The translations under genes were made by a program, and so were the position numbers. A stretch of DNA of 64,000 nucleotides from Escherichia coli (GTDB taxonomy: Bacteria; Pseudomonadota; Gammaproteobacteria; Enterobacterales; Enterobacteriaceae): NCBI RefSeq assembly GCF_003334305.1, contig NZ_QOWS01000011.1; one strand, 5' to 3'. The number at the start of each line of letters is the position of its first letter. The stretch's first letter is position 1. Under the pieces are notes generated by a model, which saw only the letters and a program-made list of their open reading frames with translations, searched no databases and was not told the DNA's origin. Shown piece by piece: positions 754 to 19,751 of this stretch.

Positions 754-1083
754 ATGGAAACTACCAAGCCTTCATTCCAGGACGTACTGGAATTTGTTCG
801 TCTGTTCCGTCGTAAGAACAAACTGCAACGTGAAATTCAGGACGTTGAGAAAAAGATCCGTGACAACCAGAAGCGCGTCCTGCTGCTGGACAACCTGAGC
901 GATTACATCAAGCCGGGGATGAGCGTTGAAGCAATCCAGGGCATCATCGCCAGCATGAAAGGTGACTATGAAGATCGCGTTGACGATTACATTATCAAAA
1001 ATGCCGAGCTCTCCAAAGAACGCCGTGATATCTCCAAAAAGCTGAAAGCTATGGGCGAAATGAAAAACGGCGAAGCGAAGTAA
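754..1083 (+). CDS. yeeX: DUF496-family protein YeeX
   Basis: Internal ATG at 754 gives 109 aa starting [30 protein letters not shown], matching recalled E. coli YeeX length and sequence. Confidence 0.8.
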
Positions 1084-1097
1084 TTCCTGTTTTATTC

Positions 1098-1124
1098 AAT
1101 GAGGGTTGCCCGGCAACCCTCATT
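1098..1124. terminator. bidirectional hairpin between convergent yeeX and pduV
   Basis: Perfect inverted repeat aatgagggttgcc / ggcaaccctcatt located between the two convergent stop codons. Confidence 0.55.
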
Positions 1125-1183
1125 GCTCATTGATTCTTTTCTGTGTATCAAAGTCATCATTCCCATCTGATAACCTATCGAAA

Positions 1184-1627
1184 TTAGCGACAGACATCTT
1201 CTGTATGCAGCAAGGCAAAAAGTTCTGTAACTCCATTGTTATTAACCGCACTGGTTACTAACACGTTGTGCGCTCCGGCTTCCCGTAACCAACATTTCAC
1301 CAAAGATATTTGTTCCATGCTGGCTAAATCTGCTTTGGTTACTACTCCAATGACCGGGCGATTCATTGACGAGGTAAAGCCTGGCGAAAAAGGTGACCAC
1401 GGTGCGTCCGCATTAAGCACCAGCGCGATAATGTCTGCTTCGCAGGCGCTGACCAACAATGCACTGTAGAGGCTTCGGTTTTCCAGGTATTCGCCTGGTG
1501 TATCAATGGTGGTCGGGGACCAGACGATTGCTTGCGTTTTCTGATAATGAATATTTTCGCCGCGCAGACATTGCGTGAGTGACGTTTTTCCGCACTGGCT
1601 GGGGCCGATGAGCATCATACGTTGCAT
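1184..1627 (-). CDS. pduV: PduV, EutP/PduV-family GTPase of the propanediol microcompartment
   Basis: 147 aa; P-loop GPSQCGKTS; last gene of the pdu block, same order as Salmonella pdu operon. Confidence 0.85.
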
Positions 1628-1631
1628 AACG

Positions 1632-1982
1632 TCAGGTCCGCGTAATGGGGCAGGCGGTAAAGCGCATCATTTCACCCAGCGTACGGGTAACCTGGCTAAG
1701 TGCATATTCAATCGCAGAAACATCACCAGTCAGCACTACGGCACCGGTAAAACGATCAAGAAAACCGATCTCTACAGCGCCTGATTTTGTGGCGATATCG
1801 CATGCGATGATAGATGCTTCGCTGGGGGTAATCGTCAGAATGCCAATAGCGGAAATGGTGTCTGGTAAACCCAATTTCTTAAACAGATCCTTCCCTGGAT
1901 TGGCAATGACATGTGCCAGCGTGACCTGCTTACCAGGGACATATTCCTGAATCATCCGTTCAGTTGTGTGCTGAGTTGTCAT
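1632..1982 (-). CDS. pduU: PduU, microcompartment shell protein
   Basis: 116 aa from ATG at 1982 (TAATG overlap with pduT stop); starts [24 protein letters not shown], close to recalled Salmonella PduU. Confidence 0.8.
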
Positions 1983-2536
1983 TATCCCTCCACCATCTGA
2001 CGCCACATGGCTTCATGTGGACGGGCAATCACCGACCGATAGACCAACAAACCTTTTTCCCCCGCACGCTCGCTGGCGACAGAGACCGCGTTATTAACAT
2101 CTGAAATATCGCCAGCAACCACCATGTAGCATTTACCGCCAATGCCAAAAGCCATATGTACGCGAACGAGAATGACATTCGCAGCTTTGACAGCACAATC
2201 GGCAGCGTCAATGCAGGCGGCGACACTCCAGGTTTCGACTACGCCGACAGCCCGGTGCTGCTCAACATGGTTAAGTCCGCTGATTGCAGTAAGGAGGCTG
2301 GGATGAATATTCGGCAGGACAAGACTGTCGACCAGCATTTCACCAGCAAGGGACGCTCCGCTGTTGATGGCCTGTTGCACCGCGCCCACATCGCCACCGA
2401 GCATCAGCAGAAATTTTCCGGGGCATAGCGTTTTGCTGACCAGTAACTCAACGTTGGCGCTTTTCAGCATGGCGTCGCCGGTTTCCATCCCTTTCGCGAT
2501 ACTGCTAAGTTCTAAAATACCTACCGCTTTCGACAT
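1982..2536 (-). CDS. pduT: PduT, microcompartment shell protein with tandem BMC domains
   Basis: 184 aa, two BMC-domain repeats ([10 protein letters not shown]... and [11 protein letters not shown]...); position between pduS and pduU. Confidence 0.85.
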
Positions 2537-2538
2537 GG

Positions 2539-3882
2539 TTAACCTCTCACAAGCGTAATCGCGTTTTCTGTCACATCGCTGACCATGCCATCAATACTGG
2601 CATGAATGGGGGCACCTAATGTGCCGTGTGGAATTTGACCTACACATTGCCCATGAACGACGCGATCGCCTTTTTGTACACACGCAATTGCGCTGGCACC
2701 GATGTGCTGGCGTAACAATAACGTCACTTTTTCGGGCTGAGGCACCTGTTCAGACAATGGCGCATCCTGATACCACGGGGTTAAGCCAAGTCTGGTTACC
2801 AGCCGTTTTACGGGAATCAGTCGATAATTTGCCATGGGATCTGCAGGATTTAAGGCACCTTCGTAGCGGAGATTTTGTGCGCGTAATTCCTGCTTAAGCA
2901 GGCGGTTTATGCGCATTGGTGAAATTCCTACCGGACAGGCGACACTGGCGCAGACGTTGCACTCTGAACAGGTGAGCGCTGTCAGTAACAGTTGCGGCGT
3001 GGCGAGCTGTTGGTAGTTAACCGCACGTACTAATAAATGGGGTGCCAGTTCGTGACCGATTAAATGACGTGGGCAGAGATCGGTACACAAGCGGCATTGC
3101 TCACAAACAGTTTTCGCGACGGCAAGTACGCTGCGGTCATTCTGCAATCGACGTTGGATCAGTGAATGAGAGTTGGGTAAAACCAGCAAGCCGCCAGTGG
3201 TTTTGCTGACTGGTGTGTCGAGCGATGTGATCAAACTTCCCATCATCGGCCCGCCATTGATAAAACCAGGAGCATCCACTGTTGCGCCGCCCGCCAGCGC
3301 CAGGACTTCACGTAAAGACATGCCGATGGGGACGGTTACCGTTATTGGTTTCGCCACTGCACCATTAACGGTGAGTGTGCGGCGCGTCACTGGATACTGT
3401 TGCTCGACGGCTCTGGTAATATTAAGTACGGTTTGAACATTATTGACCACCACACCGACGCTAACGGGTAATGCAGCGGGTGGAACGCGGCGACCAGTTG
3501 CCATCCAGATGGTCAGCACTTCGTCTCCTGCCGGGTAAACATCGGGCAAAATATGCAGGCGGATATCCGGTGGTAACAGTGGTGTGAGTGCGTTTATTGC
3601 CCGTTGATATTTCTCTTTCAGCGCGATGATTCCGCTGCTGGCCCCGGTGGCTTTCATCGCATAGTGAACACCGCGAAGCAGGCGGCTGGCTTGCTGCGCC
3701 ATTAACTGTTGATCCACTTTCAACATGGGTTCGCATTCCGCCGCATTCACCAGGAAAGTGTCAACACGCGCTTGTAGCTTAATATGGGTTGGAAAACCTG
3801 CGCCGCCAGCACCCACGACACCTGCTGCTTGTACTCGCTCGCGGATGGTCTGGTCGTCGCAGGAGGTTAACTTGACGTTCAT
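2539..3882 (-). CDS. pduS: PduS, cobalamin reductase (flavo-iron-sulfur protein)
   Basis: 447 aa; Gly-rich nucleotide-binding loop [15 protein letters not shown]; two Cys clusters [12 protein letters not shown] and [13 protein letters not shown] typical of 4Fe-4S ferredoxin motifs. Confidence 0.85.
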
Positions 3883-4991
3883 AACAACTCCTCGAGCAGT
3901 TCTGCAATTGCGGAGGCATCAGCCGCACGCGGGTTGGTACGCAACGTTGCATCCGCCAGTGCCGCCTGAACCATATCTGGTATGCGTATTGACCATTCTG
4001 CTTTTTTTTCTTTCAGCGCATTAGCAAAAGTCGGCAGCGTACAGGTTGTTTTAAGCTGCTCAATATGTTGAATAAGTGCATTCAGGCTGGCGGTGTCATT
4101 GGCGTTGTCCGGGCATAAATGGCACGTTTTCGCCAGCCGGGCATAGCGTTTGGCTGTGCGCGGATCGCCAGCATTAAAGCGGATAACTGCCGTGAGCAGG
4201 AGCGCATTCGCCAGTCCATGCTGCAGATGAAACTGTCCGCCGAGTTGATGAGCAATTGCATGGTTTAAACCGAGTCCGGCCTGGCTAAAGGCCATTCCTG
4301 CAAGCGTCGATGCATTATGCATTTTGCCACGGGTGGCAAGACAATCGCCTTTTTTCACTGCAGTGGGCAGGTATTGAAAAACAATTTGCACGGCTTTTTC
4401 GACCAGTGCATCCGTGAAGTCGCTGGCGCGAGGAGAAACATAAGCTTCAAGCGCATGGGTTAAAACATCCATCCCGGTATTGGCCGTTATCGCCGGTGGC
4501 ACGCTGACGATCAGAGATGGATCAAGGATCGCGATATCCGGATAAAGTGCATTATCGAAAAGGGGATATTTAATCCCTTTCTCAGGATCGCTGATGACAC
4601 AAGCACTGGTCACTTCGGAACCGGTACCGCTGGTGGTAGGAATGGCTACGCAGGTTTCAATTTCAATGCCACACTGGCGACCGAACCAGACAATCGCTTT
4701 TGCGGCGTCCAGGGCAGAACCGCCGCCAAAACCGATAACCACATCCGGGCGTAAAGTCTGCATTTGCGCAATGCCTTTCACCACGGTCTGGATAGTTGGG
4801 TCGGGCGTTATTTCGCTAAAAATACTAAGACGATTACTGTCGGGCAGCGCCTGATGCAACGTGTTAATGAGTGGTGAGCGTGCCAGAAAGACGTCGCAAA
4901 TAATCCAGATGTGTTTATGAGAGAAACGGCTAATTACCTTGAGACTTCCCGGTCCGCTGTATAAACGCGTCTGCAGTGAAAAAGTATTCAT
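3879..4991 (-). CDS. pduQ: PduQ, iron-dependent 1-propanol dehydrogenase
   Basis: 370 aa; Fe-ADH motif GFGGGSALDAAKA; operon position. Confidence 0.85.
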   Translation of the reverse strand: MNTFSLQTRLYSGPGSLKVISRFSHKHIWIICDVFLARSPLINTLHQALPDSNRLSIFSEITPDPTIQTVVKGIAQMQTLRPDVVIGFGGGSALDAAKAIVWFGRQCGIEIETCVAIPTTSGTGSEVTSACVISDPEKGIKYPLFDNALYPDIAILDPSLIVSVPPAITANTGMDVLTHALEAYVSPRASDFTDALVEKAVQIVFQYLPTAVKKGDCLATRGKMHNASTLAGMAFSQAGLGLNHAIAHQLGGQFHLQHGLANALLLTAVIRFNAGDPRTAKRYARLAKTCHLCPDNANDTASLNALIQHIEQLKTTCTLPTFANALKEKKAEWSIRIPDMVQAALADATLRTNPRAADASAIAELLEELL

Positions 4992-5001
4992 TTCCGTTTC
5001 T

Positions 5002-6387
5002 CTAGCGAATTGAAAAGCCGCTGGTTAACACGCAGCGTCGTGAGCGGGCAAAAGTCCGTGCTGACGTTGTCCCTTCTCCGGTCGGTGTTGCAATGGTAAA
5101 GGTCGTAAAGCCTTCGCCGCCGACGCCAATACCCGCCCAGGAGGGGCCGTTTTTGACAAAGATTGAGGTTTGCATAACGCGTGCGGCAAGGTTGAGCCGT
5201 GAGACGTTCTGCGAGTGCATAATTGCCGTGTGGTGCAAGCCGTCTTCCACTTTCAGTGCCAGGGTGAGAGCGCTATCAAAATCGTTGACCTTCACAATGG
5301 GCAGCATTGGCATCAGTTGTTCACAAGTAACCCAACTATCATTGGCGTCGACAACAGCAATCAGTAGGCGCGGCGCTTTTGCGGGCAAAGGGAGGCCTGC
5401 CGCTTCCAGCAAGGCTGATGGGCTTTTCCCAACCAGTTTTTTGTTGGCGCTACCGTCTGGCAGGCAAATTGCACGCAATTTCTCAGTTTGCTCATAGTTA
5501 AGAAGAAGTGCGCCAAAACTTTGCATCTGCTGAATTAAATAATCTGCCACTGATGCCACGACAATCAGGCTTTTTTCAGCAATACACGGCAGGTTGTAAT
5601 CAAATGAAGCGCCGTTGATGATGTCCTCGGCGGCTTTCACAATATCCGCCGTTTCATCGACGATGCACGGAGGGTTACCCGCTCCGGCACCAATCACTTT
5701 CTTGCCACTTTTCATTCCCATGGCGACGATCCCCGGACCGCCGGTAATCGCCAGAACGCTGATTTTAGGGTGCGCCATCATCTGTTCGGTGGCAGCAAAG
5801 GTCGGTTCAGATACGGTAACGATCAGGTTATGAATGCCACTACAGCGAAACGCGATGTCTTCGATTGTGGTAATCAGTTTTAACGAAACGTTTTTGGCAC
5901 CCGGGTGTGGACTGAAGTAGACGCTATTACCTGCTGCCAGCATGCTGATGCTGTTGTTAATGATGGTTTCCGTGGGGTTGGTGCTTGGCGTGACCGAGCC
6001 AATCACCCCAAACGGAGAGTACTCAAACAAAACCATGCCACCATCACCGGTTAGTGCTGTGGTGGTTAAATCTTCAATTCCTGGCGTGTTATCAAGTGCC
6101 GCTTTGTTTTTTAGGTACTTATCTTCTTTATTTCCCATCCCCGTTTCTTTGGCGCTTTCTTCTGCCAGTTCGGTAAGGCGGGGCATTAATTCTTCGCGAA
6201 TGGCGCTGATAATGGCGCTACGGGTTTTAAGCGGACACTGTTGAAAGCGTAAAAAGGCCTGGTGTGCTGCGCAGACCGCTTCATCAACAGTCTGGAAAAT
6301 AGCGTTTCTTTGCGTTCGTGGTGTAGCGGGGACAAGTTGCTCGCGCAGAATATTGCGGATCAGTGTTTCTAATTCAGAGTTATTCAT
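5002..6387 (-). CDS. pduP: PduP, CoA-acylating propionaldehyde dehydrogenase
   Basis: 461 aa; starts MNNSELETLIRNIL, close to recalled Salmonella PduP; aldehyde-dehydrogenase fold motifs (GAGNPPCIVDETAD). Confidence 0.85.
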   Translation of the reverse strand: MNNSELETLIRNILREQLVPATPRTQRNAIFQTVDEAVCAAHQAFLRFQQCPLKTRSAIISAIREELMPRLTELAEESAKETGMGNKEDKYLKNKAALDNTPGIEDLTTTALTGDGGMVLFEYSPFGVIGSVTPSTNPTETIINNSISMLAAGNSVYFSPHPGAKNVSLKLITTIEDIAFRCSGIHNLIVTVSEPTFAATEQMMAHPKISVLAITGGPGIVAMGMKSGKKVIGAGAGNPPCIVDETADIVKAAEDIINGASFDYNLPCIAEKSLIVVASVADYLIQQMQSFGALLLNYEQTEKLRAICLPDGSANKKLVGKSPSALLEAAGLPLPAKAPRLLIAVVDANDSWVTCEQLMPMLPIVKVNDFDSALTLALKVEDGLHHTAIMHSQNVSRLNLAARVMQTSIFVKNGPSWAGIGVGGEGFTTFTIATPTGEGTTSARTFARSRRCVLTSGFSIR

Positions 6388-7391
6388 TGGTTTACTCCCA
6401 CGTTAATTGCCGCCATTGCGCTTTGAGCAATATCCATGTCTTGTTCAACGCTACCGCCGCTGATGCCAAGCCCGCCAAGCAATTTTCCGTCACGCCAGAG
6501 GGGGAAGCCGCCACCAAAAGTGACGACTTTGCCTTGCATATGGCTTTCGAGCCCGTAAAGCGGCGCGCCGGGTTGCACGGTATCAGCAAGTTTGTGGGTT
6601 GCCGTTTTCATCGCCACGGCGGTCCAGGCTTTTTTCGGTGCCAGTTCACTGCTGACCAACAGGGCATCAGGCATCCGCCAGGTAACACTTTCTGTTCCGT
6701 TGGCATCAACAATGCTGATGACAACGGGAATATGCAGTTCATCCGCGCGCATTGCCGCACTACGAATGAGCTGGTGAAGATCCTGAAAAGTGAGCGGCAT
6801 TGTGCGTTCCTTCAATGCTGGTATGTGGTTGGCTTCGTGATAACGTTTTGTGATTTCCTGAATCATCAGGTTTTGATGAGCAACGTTGTCTTCCACGCGG
6901 GCGAGGGCATACAGACAATCGGAAAGTCGGTTGATATAGTGCAGCAAAACATTCCGGACGGTGGTTTCCGTTGTCAGTTCAACCAGACGTCTTTCAGCCC
7001 GTCGAGCCACTGTGCGGGCGAAATGCATGCGGCTCGCGGCTTCACATCGACCAGGCAGAATGAAGCTGTGAACTGGGGGGACGGCGTTCATTGCGCTATC
7101 GATCGCGTTTTCCAGCGCAGCAATTTCTTCCGTACCGATGTAACGCTGTTGCGCTGACGGCTGTTCACTTTCACTGGCGAGTTCGGCGCTAAACCAAAAT
7201 ATCTGTTGTTGAATGGCTTCCAGTAAGATGCGATGGCTTTCGATGGCGGTGGCGCAATAACACAGACTGAGTGTCGCGTTCAGTTCATCCAGCGTGCCAT
7301 AGGTTTCGACACGTAGATGAGTTTTGCTGACGCGCTGTCCGGTAAATAAAGACGTACTTCCTGAATCACCTGTTCGGGTATAAATTGCCAT
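6384..7391 (-). CDS. pduO: PduO, ATP:cob(I)alamin adenosyltransferase
   Basis: 335 aa; N-terminal PduO-type motif IYTRTGDSGSTSLF; overlaps pduP start by 4 nt. Confidence 0.85.
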   Translation of the reverse strand: MAIYTRTGDSGSTSLFTGQRVSKTHLRVETYGTLDELNATLSLCYCATAIESHRILLEAIQQQIFWFSAELASESEQPSAQQRYIGTEEIAALENAIDSAMNAVPPVHSFILPGRCEAASRMHFARTVARRAERRLVELTTETTVRNVLLHYINRLSDCLYALARVEDNVAHQNLMIQEITKRYHEANHIPALKERTMPLTFQDLHQLIRSAAMRADELHIPVVISIVDANGTESVTWRMPDALLVSSELAPKKAWTAVAMKTATHKLADTVQPGAPLYGLESHMQGKVVTFGGGFPLWRDGKLLGGLGISGGSVEQDMDIAQSAMAAINVGVNQ

Positions 7392-7402
7392 CTTTTAGCT
7401 CC

Positions 7403-7678
7403 TTAGCGCGAAAGCGTATCGACAATGCCGACCACTGCCAGGTCGATGGCCTCGTTAGGGCCTGAAAACACATGTCTGGCGCTGGAACCACTGCTGAGGA
7501 GTACCAACTCACCAACGCCTGCGCCGACTGAATCAACGGCAACTTCGTCGCCGGTTAATGGCGTGAGAGGCAGTTCGCCGTCAGCACTGATCCGGCGAAC
7601 CAGCAGCAGTTTTTTCCCGATCAGAGAAGGTGATTTTTGCGTGGATACTACCGCGCCAGTGACTCGAGCCAGATGCAT
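7403..7678 (-). CDS. pduN: PduN, microcompartment vertex (EutN/CcmL-family) protein
   Basis: 91 aa; [15 protein letters not shown]... typical EutN/CcmL pentamer sequence. Confidence 0.85.
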
Positions 7679-7681
7679 AAG

Positions 7682-8173
7682 TTACTCCTGCCTGATTAAC
7701 TGAATATTTCGGGTAATTGCCGCTTCACGAGCCAGTGCGGTCACACAACATTTCCGCTGTAAAACCAGTATTCCCGAGCTTAACTGTGCGATATCGGCAT
7801 AACTTAAAAGTCGATCACGATGAAGGTAGATCGGTTGCCCTTGTTCGTCGCACCAGCTTAGCGGTAGACGGGCGAGAGTCTTCAATTCAATGGCGTTCAG
7901 GAAATGACGCTGCAACGACAATTGAATGTGCAATCCCCAGGCTAACGCTTCGTGTATCTGAATCGCTGCTCGATCTGACGTTTCGTTCTCCGCAAGTTGT
8001 CGCAGCAGCGGCAGATCGACATATCGGATTTGTAATGACGCATACTGATGAACGCTCTCTTGAACGCTGGCGTCTCGCAGTTGAAAAACAGTCAGCACGA
8101 GTGTTTTTCCCGCACGTTGTTTAAGGCGAAAAACCACTTCGTCAACAATACGTTGCATCAGCATGTTATTCAT
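7682..8173 (-). CDS. pduM: PduM, microcompartment structural protein
   Basis: 163 aa, operon position between pduL and pduN; no catalytic motif. Confidence 0.75.
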   Translation of the reverse strand: MNNMLMQRIVDEVVFRLKQRAGKTLVLTVFQLRDASVQESVHQYASLQIRYVDLPLLRQLAENETSDRAAIQIHEALAWGLHIQLSLQRHFLNAIELKTLARLPLSWCDEQGQPIYLHRDRLLSYADIAQLSSGILVLQRKCCVTALAREAAITRNIQLIRQE

Positions 8174-8802
8174 GGCACTGACACCAGTGTGGCAAAAACG
8201 TCAGGGCTATCAGCGCCTGCGGCGTTGGCCTCATCGGTATCAATATGCATTTCAAGACGCATATCCGGAGAGACGCGAACAGCGACGTTTTCGAATATCA
8301 GTCGTCGCTCATCACCTTCAATGGCAACCGCCACTTTATCGCCATGCGTAACGCCATAAATCAGGGCATCCAGCGGAGACATATGAATATGCCGTTGCGC
8401 GACAATAACGCCAGATGTGATCTCCAGTTCCGCAAATGGGCTTATCAAACGAATCCCCGGAGTGCCGCTGAGATCGCCTGACATGCGTAGCGGGGCGGTG
8501 ATCCCTAACGTTCTGGCGTCCGTCCGGGAAATTTCCACCTGACTTGCATTGCGTAGCGGCCCCAACAAGCGAACGTTGTGCAATTTGCCTTTTGGTCCCT
8601 CCAGCGTAACAACCTGTTCCGCAGCGTATTGGCCAGGTTGCATTAACGGCTTTTTCTCGCTAATCGGTTGTTCAGGAAAAAGACGCAAATAATCCGCTGT
8701 TGAAAGATGTATATGGCGACTGGAAACGCCCAGTGGGATAGGGCGCTCGCGCATCTCATCCAGAATCTGGTTCACTGTTTCCTGCAAGGTTTGTTTATCC
8801 AC
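8170..8802 (-). CDS. pduL: PduL, phosphate propanoyltransferase
   Basis: 210 aa; starts MDKQTLQETVNQILDEM; size and position match PduL. Confidence 0.85.
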   Translation of the reverse strand: MDKQTLQETVNQILDEMRERPIPLGVSSRHIHLSTADYLRLFPEQPISEKKPLMQPGQYAAEQVVTLEGPKGKLHNVRLLGPLRNASQVEISRTDARTLGITAPLRMSGDLSGTPGIRLISPFAELEITSGVIVAQRHIHMSPLDALIYGVTHGDKVAVAIEGDERRLIFENVAVRVSPDMRLEMHIDTDEANAAGADSPDVFATLVSVP

Positions 8803-8804
8803 TG

Positions 8805-9227
8805 CTACTCCCCTCGCTTATTGGCGTACAGGCAAAGTGAGCGGGGCTCACCTTTTTGCCGCTGACATGCCGGGTCAAGACACAAATTACAACTGATAAT
8901 CTCTGAGGTGACGGTTGTTGCTGGTGTTTTGCTTGTTTCAACCGTCACGGTCAATGCTTCAGTTGTGTGGGGCAGAATGCCGTCTCCCGGGCGGGCAATC
9001 ACTTTGTGTGCGACAAGGCCATTTCGCTGTCCGGCGAAACTGGCTCCCGTCGCGATCGCCGCATTAACCGAGGCGACGTCACCGGTGATTTTGATGAGCG
9101 TCCAGCCTGAGCCATTGGTCTTCTCAAGGCCAACCAGCGTGATGGACGCGGCTTTTGCCATAGCGTCTGCGCAACTGATGGCGAGAGCCAGACCACTGAC
9201 TTCAAGTAATCCCAGTGATTGCTTCAC
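8805..9227 (-). CDS. pduK: PduK, microcompartment shell protein with C-terminal Cys-rich extension
   Basis: 140 aa; N-terminal BMC domain (LGLLEVSGLALAISCADAMAKAA), C-terminal tail with CNLCLDPACQ...C. Confidence 0.8.
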   Translation of the reverse strand: MKQSLGLLEVSGLALAISCADAMAKAASITLVGLEKTNGSGWTLIKITGDVASVNAAIATGASFAGQRNGLVAHKVIARPGDGILPHTTEALTVTVETSKTPATTVTSEIISCNLCLDPACQRQKGEPRSLCLYANKRGE

Positions 9228-9250
9228 GCTGTGCTCCTTAGTAAATGGGG

Positions 9251-9526
9251 TTATGCCGATTTAGGTAAAATAGCCTCAACATCACTGTGTGGGCGCGGGA
9301 TGACATGGCAGGATTTCACTTCGCCAACGGCGCTTGCGGCGGCGCTTCCTGCGTCAACGGCGGCTTTTACTGCGCCAACATCGCCACGGACCATCACTGT
9401 AATCAGACCCGAACCAATCTTTTCATAGCCAACCAGTTGCACGTTGGCGGATTTAACCATGGCATCTGCAGCTTCAATTGCGCCAACTAACCCTTTTGTT
9501 TCAACCAGTCCTAGTGCGTTGTTCAT
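9251..9526 (-). CDS. pduJ: PduJ, major microcompartment shell protein
   Basis: 91 aa; canonical BMC domain [26 protein letters not shown]. Confidence 0.9.
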
Positions 9527-9545
9527 ACAGCGTTTCTCCTGTGGA

Positions 9546-9896
9546 TTATGAGTGGCATTCCCTGAAGGGAATGCCTTTTACCAGGCGGGCAGCGTTATTG
9601 CCGATGCTGCGCCGGGTATGGTTATCTTGTTGATACATCAGCGTAAACAGTGGCGCTGATGCCGGTAAGTTTTTGTAATGCACAATCAGCTTTTCCCGGT
9701 CGCAGGCTATGCCAACCAACAGGGGGGACTGACGAGCAGCCTGCCAGGCGCTATCGATGACTTCACCTGACGGGATATGTTGAATGCGAAAGGGGATGCC
9801 TTCCTCTTCAATGCCAAGAAGCACCTCATTCCATGTACTGATACAGTCACCTATTTCCGTAACGACAATAGCGGGCGTATGTTCTTTACTTTCCAT
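9546..9896 (-). CDS. pduH: PduH, diol dehydratase reactivase small subunit
   Basis: 116 aa; position after pduG with overlapping start/stop. Confidence 0.8.
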
Positions 9897-11718
9897 GAGC
9901 CAACTCCCTGTGCCAGGAAATCAGTAGCCCGGTAGCTACCGCATTGCGCGGGCCTTCACTACCACGGATATTCCCCCGTCCGGCGACCAATCGATAATGC
10001 GCCAATGCATCGGTGACTAACTGCGGGACTTCGAAATCCAGGGAAGAACCGCCCACCAGAACGACGAACGGAATATCGCGAATATTTCCGCCTGGACTTA
10101 CCTGACGTAGCGCGCGCAGGGCATTGGTTACGAAGACGCGCTCTTTCGCACTGCGGCGAACAGCACGTACTTTTTCCTGTGTTAAATCGCCGGGAATAGG
10201 CACCAGTTCGTCAGGTTTCACCACACAAACGCGGGCAAATACATGAGGGGACAGCGGAGTAGGGAAGAACTGAACGCTTCCGTCTTCATGGCGTAAATGG
10301 AACAGGCTTTCTACTTTTGCCAACGGGTATTTTTTGATTTCTTCTGCCAGATAACGATCATTTAAGCCCAGCTCACGAGCGATAATCATCGTTACCATGT
10401 CGCCCGCTCCCGCAAGGTGAGTGGCAACGATTTCCCCACTCTGATTGATGATGGAGGCATCGGTAGAGCCTGCACCTAAGTCCAGAATTGCCAGTGGACG
10501 TGTGGTTCCAGGGGTAGTCAAGGCCCCCTGAATGGCGGCTTCTGCTTCTGCGCCTCCGACCTGAACATCAACATGCAGTTTTTGCTTAATTTCACTGGCG
10601 ATCATCGCCATTTGCAGACGGTCGGATTTCACCATAGAGGCAATACCCACAGCCTGTTCCAGTGAAAATTCACCTGCCAGACCACCGGTTACGCTGACGG
10701 GGACAGAGGTATCTATCGCCAGCAAATCCTGAATAAAAATTTCGTTGCTGGGTTTGTTGGTCAGTTCCGCCATGGTCTGGCGAACATGTTCCAGCATTCC
10801 GCCGATGTTGGTGCCTGGTTCTCCCGTCACGTTTTCCAGTTTTGGGCACTCACCGACCGCTTTCATAATGGCATCGGCACCAGCAGCTACATCAACGCGC
10901 GTTGTGCGCCCGGCAGAAAGCAGTTCGATATTTCCGGCGGGTATCGAACGGGCTTTAACGTCGCCAGAGGGCGTTTTCACTACCACTGCTGAACGGTTGC
11001 CGATTAGCGCCCGCGCGACAGGAACAATATTTTTAGTCTCTTCAGCATTGAGGGCGAATACGGTGGCAATCCCATACGGGTTAGACAGGGTTTCGATAAC
11101 TTTCCCGGGAACGGCAACTTCAATTGCTGCCAGCATGCCGAGCGGAATACGATCGATGTAGAGGACTTCATCCACAATAGGTAAAGGAATTTCCAGGCGG
11201 TTATTGACCAGTACGCCATCGTCGCGTTGCAGAATAACGCCAGTCAGCTGATATCCGGCGCGTACGGAGGCGTTTATCATCGTCGCGATATCGGCAAAAT
11301 CAAATGCCGATGACACCACCAGGATGTAAGGTGTGTCCGCCGGGCGTGTTAATAACTCTTGCGGAGTGATGGTGAGCCCTACGCCCAGCCCCACTCCGCC
11401 CGGAGTTTTCGGGTTGTGACCGATCATGGTTGATTCGGTGATGATAGTTTCAGTGATGGTTTCCATCGCCACATCACCAATGACCGGAGTTGCTTCGTTG
11501 ATACGAATAAGCGAAATATCGCTAACATTGATGCCGACTTTTTTCGTTGCCTGTGCGAGCGCCTCCTGAATACCATGGACGTTACGCAACGTACCTTTAA
11601 TTCCGGTGGTTTCCGCCAGGGCGCTACTCACGAACGACAACTCTCCAGTTGCACTGAGCGTTGCCAGCGCAACCTCTGTTGATGAGTTGCCGATATCAAT
11701 GCCTGCTATATATCGCAT
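9886..11718 (-). CDS. pduG: PduG, diol dehydratase reactivase large subunit
   Basis: 610 aa; starts MRYIAGIDIGNSSTEVALA (actin/HSP70-like ATPase fold); size matches PduG. Confidence 0.9.
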   Translation of the reverse strand: MRYIAGIDIGNSSTEVALATLSATGELSFVSSALAETTGIKGTLRNVHGIQEALAQATKKVGINVSDISLIRINEATPVIGDVAMETITETIITESTMIGHNPKTPGGVGLGVGLTITPQELLTRPADTPYILVVSSAFDFADIATMINASVRAGYQLTGVILQRDDGVLVNNRLEIPLPIVDEVLYIDRIPLGMLAAIEVAVPGKVIETLSNPYGIATVFALNAEETKNIVPVARALIGNRSAVVVKTPSGDVKARSIPAGNIELLSAGRTTRVDVAAGADAIMKAVGECPKLENVTGEPGTNIGGMLEHVRQTMAELTNKPSNEIFIQDLLAIDTSVPVSVTGGLAGEFSLEQAVGIASMVKSDRLQMAMIASEIKQKLHVDVQVGGAEAEAAIQGALTTPGTTRPLAILDLGAGSTDASIINQSGEIVATHLAGAGDMVTMIIARELGLNDRYLAEEIKKYPLAKVESLFHLRHEDGSVQFFPTPLSPHVFARVCVVKPDELVPIPGDLTQEKVRAVRRSAKERVFVTNALRALRQVSPGGNIRDIPFVVLVGGSSLDFEVPQLVTDALAHYRLVAGRGNIRGSEGPRNAVATGLLISWHRELAHGK

Positions 11719-11727
11719 AGTTCGTCC

Positions 11728-12246
11728 TTAATCGTCGCCTTTCAGTTTTTTGCGCTCGACATAAAGTTCCGCAGCTTCACGGACAAATGCAGCACAAATT
11801 TTGGCCTGATAACGCTGTTCAAGATCGTCAGCAATGGCAATAAGTTCTTGCTTAGTTGAACGATAAGGGCGTAACGCATTGTAGATTTCGAGGATGCGAT
11901 CATCTGGTACTGAGGTAAGCTCAGCGGCGCGTTCAAAATTCATCGCCAGACGATCGCGACCAGCATCTCTGGCAATCGCAGCCTGAATACGCAATGTTTC
12001 AGGGGTAATGCGCATATCCAGGGCGGTGACGTTATCGCTTAGCACATTTTCCAGAGTGAAATCGTCGAGCGTTTTATTGGTCGCTGTTTTAACCCATTCC
12101 GGATGTTTATTTGCCAGCGGGTAATCCGTCACTTTGGCGCTCAGTATTGATGCGTTGGGGACCGCAGAAACAGGAGCTGCATCCTGTAAACTGTTCATGC
12201 GGTTCAACACGTCCCTGACCATCGACTCAATTGCATCGGTATTCAT
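11728..12246 (-). CDS. pduE: PduE, B12-dependent diol dehydratase small subunit
   Basis: 172 aa; position after pduD. Confidence 0.85.
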   Translation of the reverse strand: MNTDAIESMVRDVLNRMNSLQDAAPVSAVPNASILSAKVTDYPLANKHPEWVKTATNKTLDDFTLENVLSDNVTALDMRITPETLRIQAAIARDAGRDRLAMNFERAAELTSVPDDRILEIYNALRPYRSTKQELIAIADDLEQRYQAKICAAFVREAAELYVERKKLKGDD

Positions 12247-12260
12247 GAAGGTTTCCTTTG

Positions 12261-12929
12261 TTAAAACGTCACGCGCAGTTCTTGCGGTTTTTTGCCAGTG
12301 ACCACGTACTTCGTCTCTTTAATATGCAAAATGGCAGATTTGGCCTGGTATTTCGGCCGCGCCATTTGATCGTTGAGGGTCGGCACCGGTTGTGGAGACT
12401 CGCGCTTCGCATAACGCGCGGCGTTTTTGCCAATCTGACGATAAGTATCCAGCGTCAACAAAGGCGCTTGTGGGAAAAGTTCCAGGTTAGACAAGGGAGG
12501 AAGTCCCTGCTGGTGGATAACCGTTGTGCCTTTCGACTGAATACCGATAGCAATACCTGAACCACTAAGACGATCGCCTTCGACTGCTACGAATGCGACA
12601 TCGGACGATTTAAAGCAGCGAATCACACGGGCTTTAATGCCTTCTTCTTCGATACCGGCAATCACTTCGCGCAAGATGTTTTTATGCGGAATACCGATGA
12701 TATTGACGGTTTGCGCCAGGCCGAACGCCGGGCCTACAGCAATAATGACTTCATCTTGCTGAGTGCCTTGTTGGGCTTCGCCAATTTCGGTCAGAAAATT
12801 TCCGGTATCTGGCGCGGAAGAGACAGTTGCAGAGACAGGTGCGCGAAATGAAACGGACTTGTCGCTGGGTTGCATTTCTGCCAGCACGTCTTCGATAATC
12901 TGACGCAGTAATTTTTCGTTAATTTCCAT
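12261..12929 (-). CDS. pduD: PduD, B12-dependent diol dehydratase medium subunit
   Basis: 222 aa; starts [19 protein letters not shown]. Confidence 0.85.
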
Positions 12930-12938
12930 TTCTCACCC

Positions 12939-14603
12939 TTAGTCAATTTCGTTGGGATCAAGTGCACCGGGAATATTTTTGATCTCTTCCCAGCGTTCCC
13001 CTTGCAGGCGGTAACCTGTAGCCGGTCCGGCGTAATCATTGACGTCATTGACCGCAGAGAGCACTTGTCCGTCATCGACGATGATGGCTGAGGTATGGAG
13101 ATAATCGCCGGTCAGTTTTGCTTTTTGCATGTTGAGCATGTCCTGGGCGACATCGGTAAAACCGCCTTGCGCCAGGGCTTTCACCACTTCCAGGCTGTTC
13201 CGGTTTTTATTGATAATCTCCTGGGCGAACTTGATGTCTTCCACAATATTGCGCTCAGGCATATCTTTTGAACCGTGGGCATAGGTTGCCGCTTCGACTT
13301 CTTCATCGGTAATAGGCGGTAGTCCCATACCGGCAAAGACAGCCTGTAAAGCGCGAGCGGCTTTATTGCGGATAGCGATAACATCTTCTTCGCGTACTGG
13401 TCGCAGCCCACCATCAACCTTCAGGTCACGCTGAATGACGTTGTAATCATCGAAGTCTTCAGCATCTTCGTTTGAACCAGCAAACATGTTGTCGTAGTTC
13501 GGCACAGCGGAAAAACCGGAAGAGATAAAGTCGGTGCCTGGCAGAAATTGCATCAGGAAACGTGCGGTACGGCGCATATCCGAGTGGGTAAAGGTCTGGT
13601 CATTACTGGAGGCGCATTCCAGATCCAGCGATGAGCAAATTAAGTTTTCCGCTAATACTGCGCGGATGCCTGATGGCACAGCTGATGGAACACCGATGCA
13701 GCTTACCGAACCATTCTGCAGACCCTGAACGCCTGCGGCTTTGGTGATGTAAATGCAACGAGCCTCGAGGTAAAGCATTGATTTGCCTTCCGCGTAACCC
13801 ATCTGTACTTCAGAGCCGGAGCCGGAAGTAAAGCGCATTTTTAAGCCACGAGAAGCATAGGATGACGCGAGAAACCCTTTTGACCACGGGGTATCATCAC
13901 CATCGGTGAAAACAGGTTCTGTACCATAGACAGAAATTGTTTCGGCGTAACAGGTGTGGCCTAACATACCGAGTTTCAGTTCGGTGGCTTCTTCCAGTGA
14001 ACACTGGGTCAAGACGCCCGGACGTCCCACCTGTGAGCCGACCAGCAGGGCGATGGCGTTGAACGGTGCATAGCGAGCAACGGCAACGGTGGTTTCCTGT
14101 TCATCAAACCCGCGCCATGCGCCTTCAGCTGCGTCGGCGGCAATTTGTACTGGGTTATCTTTGACGTTGGTGACATGAGCCTGTTGTGATGGTGTTCGAC
14201 GGGCGCGCATTTTCTGCATCGCCATCATCATCTCTACCACGTTCATCTGCGAAACCACTTCGACGATTTTTGCAGGCGTCATTGCTGTGGTAAGGGGAAC
14301 GATATCGCTACGTTTGACATTTGGATCGCACAACATATTGGCAAGTTTTACCGAATCCATCGCGATGACTTCTTCGGCGCGCGCGAGATTGATGCCGTAG
14401 CGGGCGATAAAGTGGTCGATCAGGTCAAACTGGCTGGCGGGTTTTCCATCCAGTTCGGTAACGACGCCGTTAACAATTTTGATTGACGGTTTAGGATCGT
14501 TCGGGCTTTCCATCGCAATAAAGCCTTCTTCAATCCACTCTTTAACGAAACCGTCCTGGTTGACCGGGCGTTTTGCCAGTGCTTCAAATCTTTTCGATCT
14601 CAT
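12939..14603 (-). CDS. pduC: PduC, B12-dependent diol dehydratase large subunit
   Basis: 554 aa; starts MRSKRFEALAKRPVNQDGFVKEWIEEGFIAMESPNDPKPSIKIVNG, near-identical to recalled Salmonella PduC. Confidence 0.95.
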   Translation of the reverse strand: MRSKRFEALAKRPVNQDGFVKEWIEEGFIAMESPNDPKPSIKIVNGVVTELDGKPASQFDLIDHFIARYGINLARAEEVIAMDSVKLANMLCDPNVKRSDIVPLTTAMTPAKIVEVVSQMNVVEMMMAMQKMRARRTPSQQAHVTNVKDNPVQIAADAAEGAWRGFDEQETTVAVARYAPFNAIALLVGSQVGRPGVLTQCSLEEATELKLGMLGHTCYAETISVYGTEPVFTDGDDTPWSKGFLASSYASRGLKMRFTSGSGSEVQMGYAEGKSMLYLEARCIYITKAAGVQGLQNGSVSCIGVPSAVPSGIRAVLAENLICSSLDLECASSNDQTFTHSDMRRTARFLMQFLPGTDFISSGFSAVPNYDNMFAGSNEDAEDFDDYNVIQRDLKVDGGLRPVREEDVIAIRNKAARALQAVFAGMGLPPITDEEVEAATYAHGSKDMPERNIVEDIKFAQEIINKNRNSLEVVKALAQGGFTDVAQDMLNMQKAKLTGDYLHTSAIIVDDGQVLSAVNDVNDYAGPATGYRLQGERWEEIKNIPGALDPNEID

Positions 14604-14621
14604 AAATCTGCCTCAGAGAAT

Positions 14622-15434
14622 TCAGATGTAGGAAGGGCGATCGTTTTTCGGTGTATCGCCGAGAGTCGAAAGCACGGTTTTACCGATTTCGCGTGCGGAG
14701 ATGACCGCCTGGCGGACTGCGCCGGAGTCACCCGAGATAATCAGAATGACTTCATTGCTGTAGCTGGTGCCTTGAGCGGGGGAGCTGTATGCCACAACAT
14801 CCACATTGGCGGACTTCAGCGCGGTGTCGGCCATCAGAACACCCACAGCGGCTGGAGCGCCGACAATAACGCCGCAAGCCCGTCCCAATGGTGCACCAAA
14901 CGCTTTTTCCAGTGCATAGCTGGCGCGGGCGGTATATTGCAGCTCAAGATGTCCGGCTTCGTTGGCATAGACATCGCCAAAGGTCCGATCGAGTTCTTTC
15001 AGGGCGACTTCAATACCGCGTTTCACGTCAGAAACATCGTTGCCACCTAAGAGGATCAATGAGCCATGTCCGGCACCGCCTTTAGTATCCCGAGGAAGTT
15101 CAATGCTAATAACTTCAGTGTTGGTGGCTTTTACCGCTTCATCAGCGGCCATAATGTGTGGCCCTGCGCCAATACGCGCACCCAGAATGCCAATGGAACG
15201 ATAGCGTTTTTCAAGTTTCATCGCGTCCAACAGGGCGCTATCAACGTTCGCAATGACCAGACCTACAGTGTCGCCAATAGCGGTGCCAACAAATTCCGTT
15301 AACGTGCAGCTTTTTTCTGCCATAGCCGTCTCTCGTGTTTGATGAGTGGTTTCCGGGAGAACCTCATGCTCTGGCGTCGCTACGCGAGCGATGACCTGCG
15401 CCATGATCTGTTCGACCAGTTCATTGCTGCTCAT
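14622..15434 (-). CDS. pduB: PduB, microcompartment shell protein (tandem permuted BMC domains); internal start for PduB' at 15323
   Basis: 270 aa; in-frame Met at codon 38 ([13 protein letters not shown]) corresponds to the PduB' start described in Salmonella. Confidence 0.9.
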
Positions 15435-15715
15435 GGGTTAATTCCCTTTGGTAAGATTTTTTCGACATCGGTATGTGGGCGGGGAATAACGTGTACGGCT
15501 TTTACTTCACCGACGTTACGCGCAGCTGCGGCACCTGCGTCTGTTGCCGCTTTTACCGCCCCGACATCACCACGAACGATGACGGTCACCAGCCCGGAAC
15601 CTATTTTTTCGTAGCCGACCAGCAAAACATTTGCCGACTTCACCATGGCGTCTGCGGCCTCTATGGCGGCAGTTAAGCCTTTGGTTTCTACCATTCCTAA
15701 CGCTTCTTGTTGCAT
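15431..15715 (-). CDS. pduA: PduA, microcompartment shell protein
   Basis: 94 aa; [30 protein letters not shown], canonical BMC domain; first gene of operon. Confidence 0.95.
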
Positions 15716-16226: not shown

Positions 16227-17036
16227 ATGAATGATTCACTCAAGGCGCAATGCGTTGCCGAGTTTTTAGGCACCGGACTGTTCCTCTTTTTTGGCATCGG
16301 TTGTTTGTGCGCCCTGAAACTTGCCGGGGCAAGTCTGGGACTGTGGGAAATTTGTATCATTTGGGGGTTAGGGATTTCGCTTGCTGTTTACCTTACGGCA
16401 GGTATTTCCGGCGCTCATCTCAACCCGGCTGTTACCATTGCTCTGTGGCTGTTTGCCTCTTTCCCAGCCCGTAAAGTGCTGCCATTTTGTGTGGCGCAAT
16501 TAGCGGGTGCCTTTGGTGGTGCGGTTCTGGCATATTCTCTATACAGCAGTTTGTTTACCGATTTTGAATCTGCTCACAATATGGTGCGTGGTAGTGCAGA
16601 AAGTTTACAACTCGTCAGTATCTTCAGTACTTATCCGGCAGCGGCGATTAATGTATGGCAAGCTGCGTTGGTCGAAGTGGTCATAACGTCCATGTTAATG
16701 GGGTTGATTATGGCGTTGACCGATGACGGTAATGGCGTACCCAAAGGACCGCTTGCACCTTTACTTATTGGTATTCTGGTTGCTGTTATTGGTGCTTCTA
16801 CCGGACCATTAACCGGTTTTGCCATGAATCCAGCGCGTGATTTTGGACCTAAGATTTTCACCTGGCTTGCGGGGTGGGGAGAAATTGCGATGACTGGTGG
16901 ACGCAATATTCCTTATTTCATTGTACCCATTATTGCACCGATCATTGGGGCATGTGTTGGTGCGGCGATTTATCGCTATCTCATTGCAAAGAATTTACCT
17001 GTCAATAGTGTTACACCTAAAGGAATTAGCGAATAA
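16227..17036 (+). CDS. pduF: PduF, propanediol diffusion facilitator (MIP/aquaglyceroporin family)
   Basis: ATG at 16227 with GAAGGTG upstream gives 269 aa starting MNDSLKAQC; NPA motifs (HLNPAVT, MNPARD). Confidence 0.9.
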   Translation: MNDSLKAQCVAEFLGTGLFLFFGIGCLCALKLAGASLGLWEICIIWGLGISLAVYLTAGISGAHLNPAVTIALWLFASFPARKVLPFCVAQLAGAFGGAVLAYSLYSSLFTDFESAHNMVRGSAESLQLVSIFSTYPAAAINVWQAALVEVVITSMLMGLIMALTDDGNGVPKGPLAPLLIGILVAVIGASTGPLTGFAMNPARDFGPKIFTWLAGWGEIAMTGGRNIPYFIVPIIAPIIGACVGAAIYRYLIAKNLPVNSVTPKGISE

Positions 17037-17238
17037 CGAAATACTCTGGCAGTTATAAACATTTATTTTTTTACTGTTTGTGATCTGCTTTCCGAACTTA
17101 TTAAAAAGTCTCCCGCTTCACGGAGGCTTTTGTTATTGTCCTTTGTGCTTCTCGTCAGTAAATCATCAGGGATGATGTGAAGATTAAATGTAAAACAATT
17201 GTTTTGCTATAACAATAAATTAACTGGGAGGTTTTATC

Positions 17239-18153
17239 ATGATTTCTGCGGCGACACTTAATTCAGAACTCATTAATAAAATCGCGCAGGATTTTGCGCA
17301 GGCGACCAGCCTTGCGGTTGTCGTGGTCAATATTCACGGCGATGAAATTTCCGAGCTGTTTAACTTCACTCCATTTTGTCAGATGATGCGGCAACACCCT
17401 CAGCTAAGCACTCGATGTCGCATGAGCGATCGTTGTGGGGGCCTGGAAGCCTCTAAATCCGATCAGCCTTGTATTTATCGCTGTCATGCCGGATTAACCG
17501 ATTTCTCTATTCCACTGGTAATCGCCGGACATTTAGTCGGTTTTGTATTGTGCGGGCAAGTTCGTCTGCGTAATGATGATGTCGATTTGGTCGATATTCT
17601 GAATGTCGATGATTGCTGGCAGGCAGATCCCGAATTACTTAATGAATTCCGCAAAGTTCCTGAGATGGATTACTCAAGAGTTATGGCCTCTGCTGATTTG
17701 TTGAAGTTGATTGTGGAAAATTGCCTCAAAAAACAACTCAATTTTGTGGTTATTAAAGAGAACAAATCTCGGTCAGATTCGGTGCGCCAGACTCGTGCGC
17801 CTAATCCCCACGACAATAAAATGAAAAAAGCTTTACGCTATATTGATGCGCATTTATCAGACGATTTGCGTCTGGAAGATGTCGCCTCGCACGTTTATCT
17901 AAGTCCTTATTATTTCAGTAAGTTATTCAAGAAATACCATGGAATCGGTTTTAATGCGTGGGTAAACCAACAACGGATGGCCAGCGCTCGTGAGTTACTG
18001 TGCCATAGTGACTGGAGCATCGCCAGCATTGCGCGTAATTTAGGTTTTTCGCAAACCAGTTATTTTTGCAAAGTTTTCCGTCAGACTTATCAGGTTACGC
18101 CGCAGGTGTATCGACAGCAAGTGAGTGAAAATGCGGCGATGGAAACGGTATAG
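17239..18153 (+). CDS. pocR: PocR, AraC-family activator of pdu/cob genes
   Basis: 304 aa; MISAATLNSELINKIAQDFAQA..., C-terminal AraC-type HTH; close to recalled Salmonella PocR. Confidence 0.9.
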   Translation: MISAATLNSELINKIAQDFAQATSLAVVVVNIHGDEISELFNFTPFCQMMRQHPQLSTRCRMSDRCGGLEASKSDQPCIYRCHAGLTDFSIPLVIAGHLVGFVLCGQVRLRNDDVDLVDILNVDDCWQADPELLNEFRKVPEMDYSRVMASADLLKLIVENCLKKQLNFVVIKENKSRSDSVRQTRAPNPHDNKMKKALRYIDAHLSDDLRLEDVASHVYLSPYYFSKLFKKYHGIGFNAWVNQQRMASARELLCHSDWSIASIARNLGFSQTSYFCKVFRQTYQVTPQVYRQQVSENAAMETV

Positions 18154-18269
18154 AATAAATGCTAAAAAAAGGGAAGGTTTAAATAAACGCTGGAATGAAT
18201 AATTAACGTTATTTACGTGTTATGGGAAAAGTGAAATCAGCTCATAACATACGCTGACAGGTGTGGCAC

Positions 18270-18470
18270 ATTTGTGCCTGGGAAGAGGGTGAAAATCCCT
18301 CGCAGCCCCCGCTGCTGTAATGCTGACAAACCCGAAAATGCCACTGATCGCGAGATTGGGAAGGTCGGGTGAGGATGACGCTAAGCCAGAAGACCAGTCT
18401 GTCAGTCAATACCAACAACTTCGGTGGGAAGTGGGTTGCCCGGAAGCGTCCGGTAGAGTACTGGCGCGTC
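18270..18470 (+). ncRNA. cobalamin (AdoCbl) riboswitch-like leader, cob-operon type
   Basis: Conserved riboswitch core GGAAGAGGGTGAAAATCCCTCGCAGCCCCCGCTGCTGTAA at 18281-18320, GCCACTG at 18340-18346, B12-box-like AGCCAGAAGACCAG at 18383-18396; boundaries approximate. Confidence 0.6.
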
Positions 18471-18565
18471 TTTATACCCCTACCACCCTGAAAGGATCAG
18501 GGTATGGCGGCATCATTTAGTTCTTTCATCGCAGTGCCGACAGGCACCAGGGCTGCATTCAAGGT

Positions 18566-19072
18566 GTGGCAATATTGTTTCATGGCTTATCAACCAGACC
18601 GCCATTACAGGAAATTAAGTGGAGGGCGAGAGGCATGAAAACGATAAAACCCGAATCGATAGCTCTTTTTTGCCTCTTATCTGGAGATGTGGATCTGGCG
18701 AAACATCTGGCTGAAATATTGCCAATAACCTGTTTTGTTGGTGAGGACTGGCAGCAAGATTTCCAGCCTCTTGATGGTGGGCCTGTGCAATCGTTATCAG
18801 ATGCGTATAGCGATTATTCAGTGCTGCTATTGATAGCAGCTGAAAGCGAGATATCCGTACCAGAATGGCTCGCTCATTCTGAGGGAACGACGGTAATTTT
18901 GATTGCAGAACACAATGCCCGTTTGCTGACTGGTCCGGCTGGTGGGGCTGTAGCATTAATCCATTATCTGAATGAAATCTGTCATTCCAGAGAAACCGCT
19001 GTCAATGACGCATTTTGTCAGACGTTAACACGAGGAAGTCTGGCTATTCCACATAGCCATCTTCTTTCGTAA
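18566..19072 (+). CDS. hypothetical protein (168 aa), unassigned ORF at the position occupied by cbi genes in Salmonella
   Basis: ORF track only; no motif recognised; sits between riboswitch-like leader and cobU. Confidence 0.3.
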   Translation: MAILFHGLSTRPPLQEIKWRARGMKTIKPESIALFCLLSGDVDLAKHLAEILPITCFVGEDWQQDFQPLDGGPVQSLSDAYSDYSVLLLIAAESEISVPEWLAHSEGTTVILIAEHNARLLTGPAGGAVALIHYLNEICHSRETAVNDAFCQTLTRGSLAIPHSHLLS

Positions 19073-19205: not shown

Positions 19206-19751
19206 ATGATGATTTTGGTGACGGGGGGCGCACGGAGCGGGAAGAGTCGCCATGCAGAGGCGCTTATTGGGGACTCTTCACAGGTTCTGTATATCGCCAC
19301 CTCACAAATCCTTGATGATGAGATGGCTGCACGGATAGAACATCATCGGCAAGGCCGCCCGGCGCACTGGCGCACGGTGGAGCGTTGGCAACATCTTGAT
19401 GAATTAATTCATGCAGACATTAACCCGCATGAGGCTGTATTGCTGGAATGCGTTACCACCATGGTGACTAATCTGTTGTTTGATTATGGCGGCGATAAAG
19501 ACCCTGATGAATGGGATTATCAGGCGATGGAACAGGCGATTAATGCTGAGATTCAGTCGTTGATTGCTGCCTGCCAACGTTGTCCCGCAAAGGTTGTATT
19601 AGTGACTAACGAAGTGGGAATGGGGATTGTGCCGGAGAGTCGTCTGGCACGACATTTTCGTGATATTGCCGGGCGGGTAAATCAGCAGCTGGCCGCTGCG
19701 GCAAATGAAGTATGGTTGGTGGTTTCGGGTATTGGAGTAAAAATCAAATGA
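19206..19751 (+). CDS. cobU: CobU, adenosylcobinamide kinase / adenosylcobinamide-phosphate guanylyltransferase
   Basis: 181 aa; P-loop [16 protein letters not shown] 8 nt upstream. Confidence 0.9.

Follow-up and report, generated by a model that had tools for sequence, protein, structure and literature searches.

The pdu operon of Escherichia coli ends at pduV: an old, genus-wide junction without pduW and pduX

Organisation of the locus

The stretch of DNA analysed here, referred to as the window, comprises 64,000 nt of an Escherichia coli genome (RefSeq assembly GCF_003334305.1, contig NZ_QOWS01000011.1) and carries a pdu operon close to one of its ends (Table 1). Over the two stretches compared, 700–2000 and 1084–1631, the window matches E. 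coli H15 (NZ_CP010178) at 100% identity, and subtracting 19301 from a coordinate of the H15 locus gives the window coordinate. Both the open reading frame (ORF) listing and the RefSeq annotation of H15 have pduV as the last pdu gene. It is followed directly, as a first-pass annotation of the sequence had described, by the convergent gene yeeX, the two stop codons being separated by a spacer of 100 nt. YeeX, a DUF496 protein annotated as tmaR in H15, belongs to the TmaR family (NCBIfam NF040881, 188.5 bits; curated cut-off 170), and PduV to the EutP/PduV family (TIGR02528, 186.7 bits over residues 2–141; cut-off 138.35), with P-loop GTPase motifs, TKAD among them, readable in its translation.

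The matching H15 record annotates every gene from pduA to pduV as intact. These include the BMC shell genes (pduA, pduB, pduJ, a BMC-domain protein, an EutN/CcmL protein, pduT and pduU), the B12-dependent diol dehydratase pduCDE with its reactivase pduGH, for which the ORF sizes match in the window, and PduL, PduP and PduQ together with the cofactor recyclers PduO and PduS. Past pduA, the RefSeq order in H15 is pduF, pocR, a cobalamin riboswitch, a hypothetical ORF, cobUST and ldtA.

The first-pass annotation had stated that pduW and pduX, the last two genes of a full Salmonella-type operon (pduA–X), are absent, and this is borne out by the ORF listing, by the H15 annotation and by tblastn of Citrobacter PduW and PduX against the 64-kb window, which returned nothing at E≤1e-5 and noise alone at E≤10.

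Further along the window, an enterobacterial sRNA, STnc230, is matched by Rfam in the pduF–pocR intergenic region at 74.8 bits, against a gathering score of 50. Three tRNA genes with equal scores lie beyond cobT, the tRNA at the corresponding position in a related strain being annotated as tRNA-Asn. The very large ORFs after them (3163 and 2041 aa) may represent the Yersinia high-pathogenicity island (irp1/irp2, ybt, fyuA), inserted at a tRNA-Asn gene.

Table 1. Features of the pdu locus and its surroundings in the 64,000-nt window
Feature	Position	Strand	Basis or remark
yeeA (partial)	ends at 582	+	ORF listing, H15 RefSeq annotation
yeeX / tmaR (DUF496, PTS regulator TmaR)	754–1083	+	convergent to the pdu operon; tmaR in H15 RefSeq
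Spacer, 100 nt	1084–1183		tmaR stop to pduV stop
Hairpin, 13-bp stem, 3-nt loop	1097–1125		within the spacer
pduV, EutP/PduV-family small GTPase-like microcompartment protein, 147 aa	1184–1627	-	TIGR02528
pduU	1632–1982	-	beyond it pduT, S, Q, P onward to pduA
Remaining pdu operon, in transcription order pduA, B, C, D, E, G, H, J, K, L, M, N, O, P, Q, S, T, U	1632–15715	-	H15 RefSeq annotation, ORF listing
pduF and pocR	16227–18153	+	divergent from pduA; H15 annotation
STnc230 match	17095–17178	-	Rfam
Cobalamin riboswitch and CbiG N-terminal relic ORF	18242–19072	+	Rfam RF00174, NF004463
Cobalamin riboswitch	18242–18416	+	Rfam RF00174
CbiG relic ORF	18566/18635–19072	+	NF004463
cobU, cobS, cobT (late, salvage-type cobalamin steps)	19206–21582	+	H15 annotation
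Three tRNA genes (region 22638–26940)	22638–22710, 25047–25119, 26868–26940		equal scores
Very large ORFs	27395–63809		3163 and 2041 aa

Cobalamin genes beside the operon

Between pocR and cobU, all that remains of the cbi operon is the riboswitch (107.8 bits) and an N-terminal relic of CbiG, an ORF that matches positions 1–125 of the 351 of NF004463 (E 2.6e-19, far under the full-length cut-off). In Salmonella an intact cbi operon occupies the interval between the riboswitch and cobU, where the window has only this relic. The cbiG fragment would imply at least two deletions, one of cbiA–F and one of the rest of cbiG through cbiP. L-threonine phosphate for CobD and CbiB is supplied by PduX (PMC6249242), and with cbi reduced to a riboswitch and a CbiG fragment PduX would have no use.

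Distribution of the junction within E. coli

The region 1084–1631, and with it the spacer, was matched in 5418 of 5426 complete E. coli genomes. A whole pduV, defined as a match covering at least 80% of this region, is present in 643 of the 5426, namely LF82, H15 and 641 more, all with an identical or near-identical 3′ end (95.8–100% DNA identity over 1084–1631 among pdu-positive E. coli), and the window is simply one member of this set. With the longer query 700–2000, pduT/pduU/pduV plus tmaR were covered in 641 genomes. In the published expression table of LF82, too, pduV is the last pdu gene listed (PMC6379400).

Most of the other genomes match just 1084–1366 and a few 1084–1482, so that they keep the spacer together with a 3′ remnant of pduV; among rows sampled evenly down the ranking, approximately 80% stop at window position 1366 and approximately 5% at 1482. 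K-12 illustrates this form, as its relic preserves the spacer, the hairpin and the 3′ 183 nt of pduV found in the window, whereas the CP4-44 prophage stands in place of the other pdu genes that complete the window operon up to pduA. Wedged between tmaR and CP4-44 is a 60-aa ORF of the EutP/PduV family, which is presumably yoeF. One further strain has a deletion running from mid-pduV up to the relic ORF upstream of cobU. Because the spacer and 3′ fragments of pduV persist in pdu-negative genomes, the pduV/spacer/tmaR junction is a species-wide constant in E. coli, and pdu has been lost secondarily within the species, with several different endpoints.

Short contigs carrying an E. coli-type pduV relic were also encountered in metagenome-assembled genomes (MAGs) labelled Planctomycetota and Segatella copri (L028 and L029, respectively), L028 including the end of yeeX as well; both are probably Escherichia contamination of the bins.

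The equivalent locus in other species

Scanning one genome per GTDB species with E. coli PduV as the query yielded 29 loci. E. coli (two GTDB species clusters), E. whittamii and E. albertii each have yeeX as the next gene after pduV, and a pduV relic adjoins yeeX in a cryptic-clade Escherichia. The order pduV-pduW-pduX was found in 20 of 21 loci from Citrobacter, Pluralibacter, Pseudocitrobacter and relatives, the contig of the 21st stopping inside pduX, and in 19 of those 20 yeeX-yeeA comes after pduX; a soil MAG is likewise among the loci with this order. Citrobacter PduW is an acetate/propionate-family kinase (827.9 bits; cut-off 659), and Citrobacter PduX is a GHMP-type kinase whose database relatives are named L-threonine kinase. 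In Citrobacter, for example C. youngae CCUG 30791, the layout and flanks are otherwise as in the window, with pduX after pduW and approximately 39 nt containing a different hairpin between pduX and yeeX.

The PduV-based scan missed Salmonella and Klebsiella, its peptide patterns being too specific, and both were reached via PduX homologues and their contigs. The pdu operon of Salmonella enterica LT2 (pduABCDEGHJKLMNOPQSTUVWX) occupies the same site, with yeeX-yeeA-sbmC-dacD on one side and pocR/pduF on the other; the order from pduA to pduV and the convergent yeeX are common to both, and the difference lies between pduV and yeeX, where Salmonella carries the propionate kinase gene pduW and the L-threonine kinase gene pduX. 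One S. enterica genome reached by this route reads pduV-pduW(split)-pduX-DUF496(yeeX)-yeeA-sbmC-dacD. This genome and the Citrobacter group have pduW and pduX after pduV, which the first-pass annotation had described as the Salmonella-type arrangement. Klebsiella michiganensis has pduV-pduW-pduX followed by an aminotransferase, amiC, argA and recD. This Klebsiella-type locus, at amiC-argA, has the same pdu gene set and order as the window up to pduV, but lies at another chromosomal site and keeps pduW and pduX ahead of its cobD-like aminotransferase gene. As the V-W-X order is also found at the Klebsiella site, it predates the yeeX-linked locus, and Escherichia is the exception.

Sequence divergence of the operon resembles that of its surroundings. 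Between E. coli and C. youngae the Pdu proteins are 54–91% identical and the flanking YeeX, YeeA, SbmC and DacD 74–94%; between E. coli and E. albertii or E. whittamii the values are 84–100% for Pdu proteins and 87–100% for flanking proteins (84–99% and 87–100% for E. albertii alone). That Pdu and flank divergence are alike fits vertical descent of the locus together with its flanks.

At the junction itself, E. coli PduV is 78% identical to Citrobacter PduV over residues 1–144, and the similarity stops where Citrobacter pduW starts, the start of that gene overlapping the end of pduV. On the right side, only the yeeX coding sequence and the 8-mer ATAAAACA beside the yeeX stop align to Citrobacter, this 8-mer being the only match within the spacer. 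The remaining 80–90 nt or so of Escherichia spacer has no counterpart in Citrobacter and no match in pduW/pduX; when remnants of these two genes were sought in the spacers of four Escherichia species by short-word and relaxed blastn and by blastx at E≤1000, only noise was returned.

The spacer and its hairpin

The spacer contains a perfect stem of 13 bp closed by a 3-nt loop (CAATGAGGGTTGC-CCG-GCAACCCTCATTG). The 86-nt stretch 1075–1160 of the plus strand, with the hairpin inside, folds at -23.3 kcal/mol (z = -3.7 against shuffles), and the 126-nt stretch 1075–1200 of the minus strand, again with the hairpin inside, at -35.9 kcal/mol (z = -3.7), so that the stable G+C-rich hairpin of an intrinsic terminator is present on both strands. 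A U-run directly past the stem is absent on both, the bases that follow being GAAUAAAACAGG on the pdu strand and GCUCAUUGAUUCUUUUC on the tmaR strand, and the terminator scan, which requires at least five T in 8 bases at 0–2 bases from the stem, made no call there. In the promoter/terminator scan of 500–2200 the sole terminator call fell inside tmaR, and an Rfam scan of the whole window at gathering scores gave no match within 1084–1631. The first-pass annotation had spoken of a convergent terminator hairpin; the hairpin is real, but the word terminator exceeds what the sequence allows, and a role as a transcript end for tmaR and/or pdu is possible.

Aligned across five Escherichia junctions, the spacer has a mean column identity of 86%. 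Pairing of the hairpin is retained in 93.8% of cells, with two pairs changed on both sides, a result equalled by 50 of 500 shuffles. In Citrobacter a different strong hairpin is found at the equivalent position beside the yeeX stop. It is conceivable, though unlikely, that the spacer and hairpin form a selected RNA element, be it a tmaR terminator or 3′ UTR, a bidirectional transcript end, or an sRNA element. Such an element, if real, would explain both the retention of the spacer in all but eight of the complete E. coli genomes and the fact that independent pdu deletions (ending at 1366, 1482 and elsewhere) stop short of it; the Escherichia-specific spacer would then have taken the place of the Citrobacter-type hairpin upon loss of pduW and pduX.

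In RNA-seq data from LF82, pduO–pduT were induced by bile salts and pduU (1.1-fold) and pduV (-1.2-fold) were not (PMC6379400, Table 4), a difference that read-through from the convergent tmaR, or a transcript end inside the operon, could explain.

pduW and pduX elsewhere in E. coli

The complete E. coli genomes were searched for pduW and pduX at the DNA level, with a reach of approximately 65–70% identity. Citrobacter pduW-pduX DNA (word size 11) found a match in one of the 5426, and in its pduW part only; H15, which was among the genomes searched, gave none. The sole matching genome, strain 48 from a deer (NZ_CP166879, 5244379–5260146), has a second, foreign pdu island that extends from pduA to pduV-pduW, ends at IS66/IS21 fragments near cdiA, and is without pduX. 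With a Klebsiella-type pduV-pduW-pduX query, elsewhere among the complete genomes only the pduV part was matched, and the pduX part of either query was matched in none.

A search with the PduX protein did recover clusters labelled E. coli or Shigella flexneri, derived from two kinds of locus. In the first (GCA_002521365.1, ERR987359 and ERR987355, labelled E. coli), pduX lies on an IS-flanked island next to a CdiA-like gene, in company with cbiA-B-C-D-E-T-F-G-H, a cobD-like aminotransferase gene, cysG-like genes and cobA. This looks like a mobile B12-synthesis island, on which pduX travels with cbi and not with pdu. In the second, drafts labelled E. coli or S. flexneri (GCA_022423985.1 and others) carry a pdu locus running to pduV-pduW-pduX-aminotransferase-amiC-argA-recD, of the Klebsiella type seen in K. 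michiganensis; the amiC-argA region of these drafts shares only 95.4% identity with complete E. coli genomes, pointing to a recombinant or to a divergent lineage of Escherichia. The E. coli-labelled PduX proteins were considered as counter-evidence to the absence of pduX and rejected, as neither the IS-flanked cbi/cob island nor the Klebsiella-type amiC-linked locus is at yeeX.

Function without PduW and PduX

That E. coli has no counterpart of PduW has been reported before (PMC3475010), and a pdu-positive Crohn's isolate was found to have only TdcD, which is 44% identical to PduW (PMC7360682). Among the 5426 complete genomes, ackA is present in 5423 and tdcD in 5378, and the role of PduW may well be covered by AckA/TdcD. 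The Salmonella proteins PduW and PduX are cytosolic rather than part of the microcompartment (PMC7181861), and the organelle need not suffer from their absence. A pduC mutant of E. coli CUMT8 does not grow on 1,2-propanediol (PMC9220930), indicating a working operon in the wild type, the 3′ end of the CUMT8 operon lying outside the present comparison.

The first-pass annotation had argued that loss of pduX fits the absence of cbi genes and that pduW is redundant with ackA/tdcD, and this functional reasoning is plausible. For pduX, the reduction of cbi to a riboswitch and a relic stands as observed, and the draft labelled E. coli in which pduX sits beside cbiA–H and a cobD-like gene fits the proposed coupling of pduX to cbi. 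The operon without pduW and pduX would still make a microcompartment and degrade 1,2-propanediol, with AckA and/or TdcD, both housekeeping paralogues, probably converting propionyl-phosphate from PduL to propionate and ATP. pduX would have become dispensable once the cbi operon and the threonine-phosphate branch were gone, leaving salvage of cobinamide or B12 via cobUST. E. coli would need to take up B12 or cobinamide to use propanediol, and AckA/TdcD would probably carry out the step that yields ATP.

Origin of the junction

The arrangement is most convincingly explained, and we hold this with considerable confidence, as the normal 3′ end of a native Escherichia pdu locus, shaped by one deletion that removed pduW and pduX long ago in the stem lineage. 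Absence is read as loss because Salmonella and Citrobacter operons carry pduV-pduW-pduX before yeeX, and loss, as the first-pass annotation had supposed, is the best reading. We infer the deletion from phylogenetic distribution, no scar being visible in the spacer. The ancestor that Escherichia shares with Citrobacter and Salmonella most likely had pduV-pduW-pduX directly before the convergent yeeX-yeeA. In the Escherichia stem lineage, a single deletion probably took out pduW and pduX, with its left edge at about codon 144 of pduV, where Citrobacter pduW starts, giving rise to a new short PduV tail and stop codon, and with its right edge just ahead of the yeeX stop. The pduV/100-nt spacer/yeeX junction so formed would have been passed to E. 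coli, E. albertii, E. whittamii and a cryptic-clade Escherichia, its hairpin perhaps marking the ends of tmaR and/or pdu transcripts, and most E. coli would later have shed the remaining operon, keeping the junction and the pduV 3′ fragment.

The reverse history, in which the form ending at pduV is ancestral at the yeeX-linked locus and pduW-pduX were gained later in the Citrobacter/Salmonella branch, would account for a spacer free of any detectable pduW/pduX remnant and for the presence by the yeeX stop of a hairpin in both groups, of different sequence. It is nevertheless very unlikely, as the V-W-X order recurs in Klebsiella at another site, in Pluralibacter, Pseudocitrobacter, the soil MAG and the foreign islands, and the similarity between Escherichia and Citrobacter PduV stops exactly at the pduW start.

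About equally improbable is horizontal re-acquisition of an operon already lacking pduW/pduX, by homologous replacement at the old site. The patchiness of pdu in E. coli (643/5426) and the multiple gains proposed within ST372 (PMC9997745) speak for it; however, Pdu divergence among Escherichia species and from Citrobacter is about that of the flanking core genes, pdu-less genomes retain the pduV relic at the same junction, and transfer within the species moves the same Escherichia-type allele, leaving its origin unexplained. A recent deletion specific to this strain or lineage, for which only the contrast with Salmonella and Citrobacter operons speaks, is refuted for practical purposes: the junction occurs in 5418/5426 complete E. 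coli genomes, and E. albertii, E. whittamii and a cryptic-clade Escherichia have it too, with a spacer and hairpin that can be aligned.

Under the preferred history of a single stem-lineage deletion, the arrangement is ordinary: it is the standard Escherichia form, and the loss is genus-wide and old. The first-pass annotation had presented it as a notable feature of the locus, which does not hold, since the same junction is found in all 643 complete E. coli genomes with a whole pduV, beside the pduV relics of most others, and in E. albertii and E. whittamii. That annotation had named two findings that would count against it, namely pduW or pduX elsewhere in the genome and related pdu loci ending at pduV. 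At the DNA level the former was not found; the latter is what comparison of pdu loci across the genus Escherichia revealed. Published work already records that E. coli lacks PduW, and the arrangement is annotated in hundreds of RefSeq genomes, while no paper was found in the open-access literature that spells out an E. coli pdu operon without both pduW and pduX.

The result matters little beyond bookkeeping, with one practical consequence: pathway reconstructions that demand PduW will wrongly call pdu-positive E. coli incomplete. The shared junction also provides a clean marker of pdu in the Escherichia ancestor, followed by repeated loss within E. coli. As a separate observation from E. albertii, in the locus of strain NBRC 107761 (positions 4238–5245) pduO is seemingly split into ORFs of 237 and 96 aa, and pduV, at 143 aa, has an earlier stop; the operon may be decaying in this strain.
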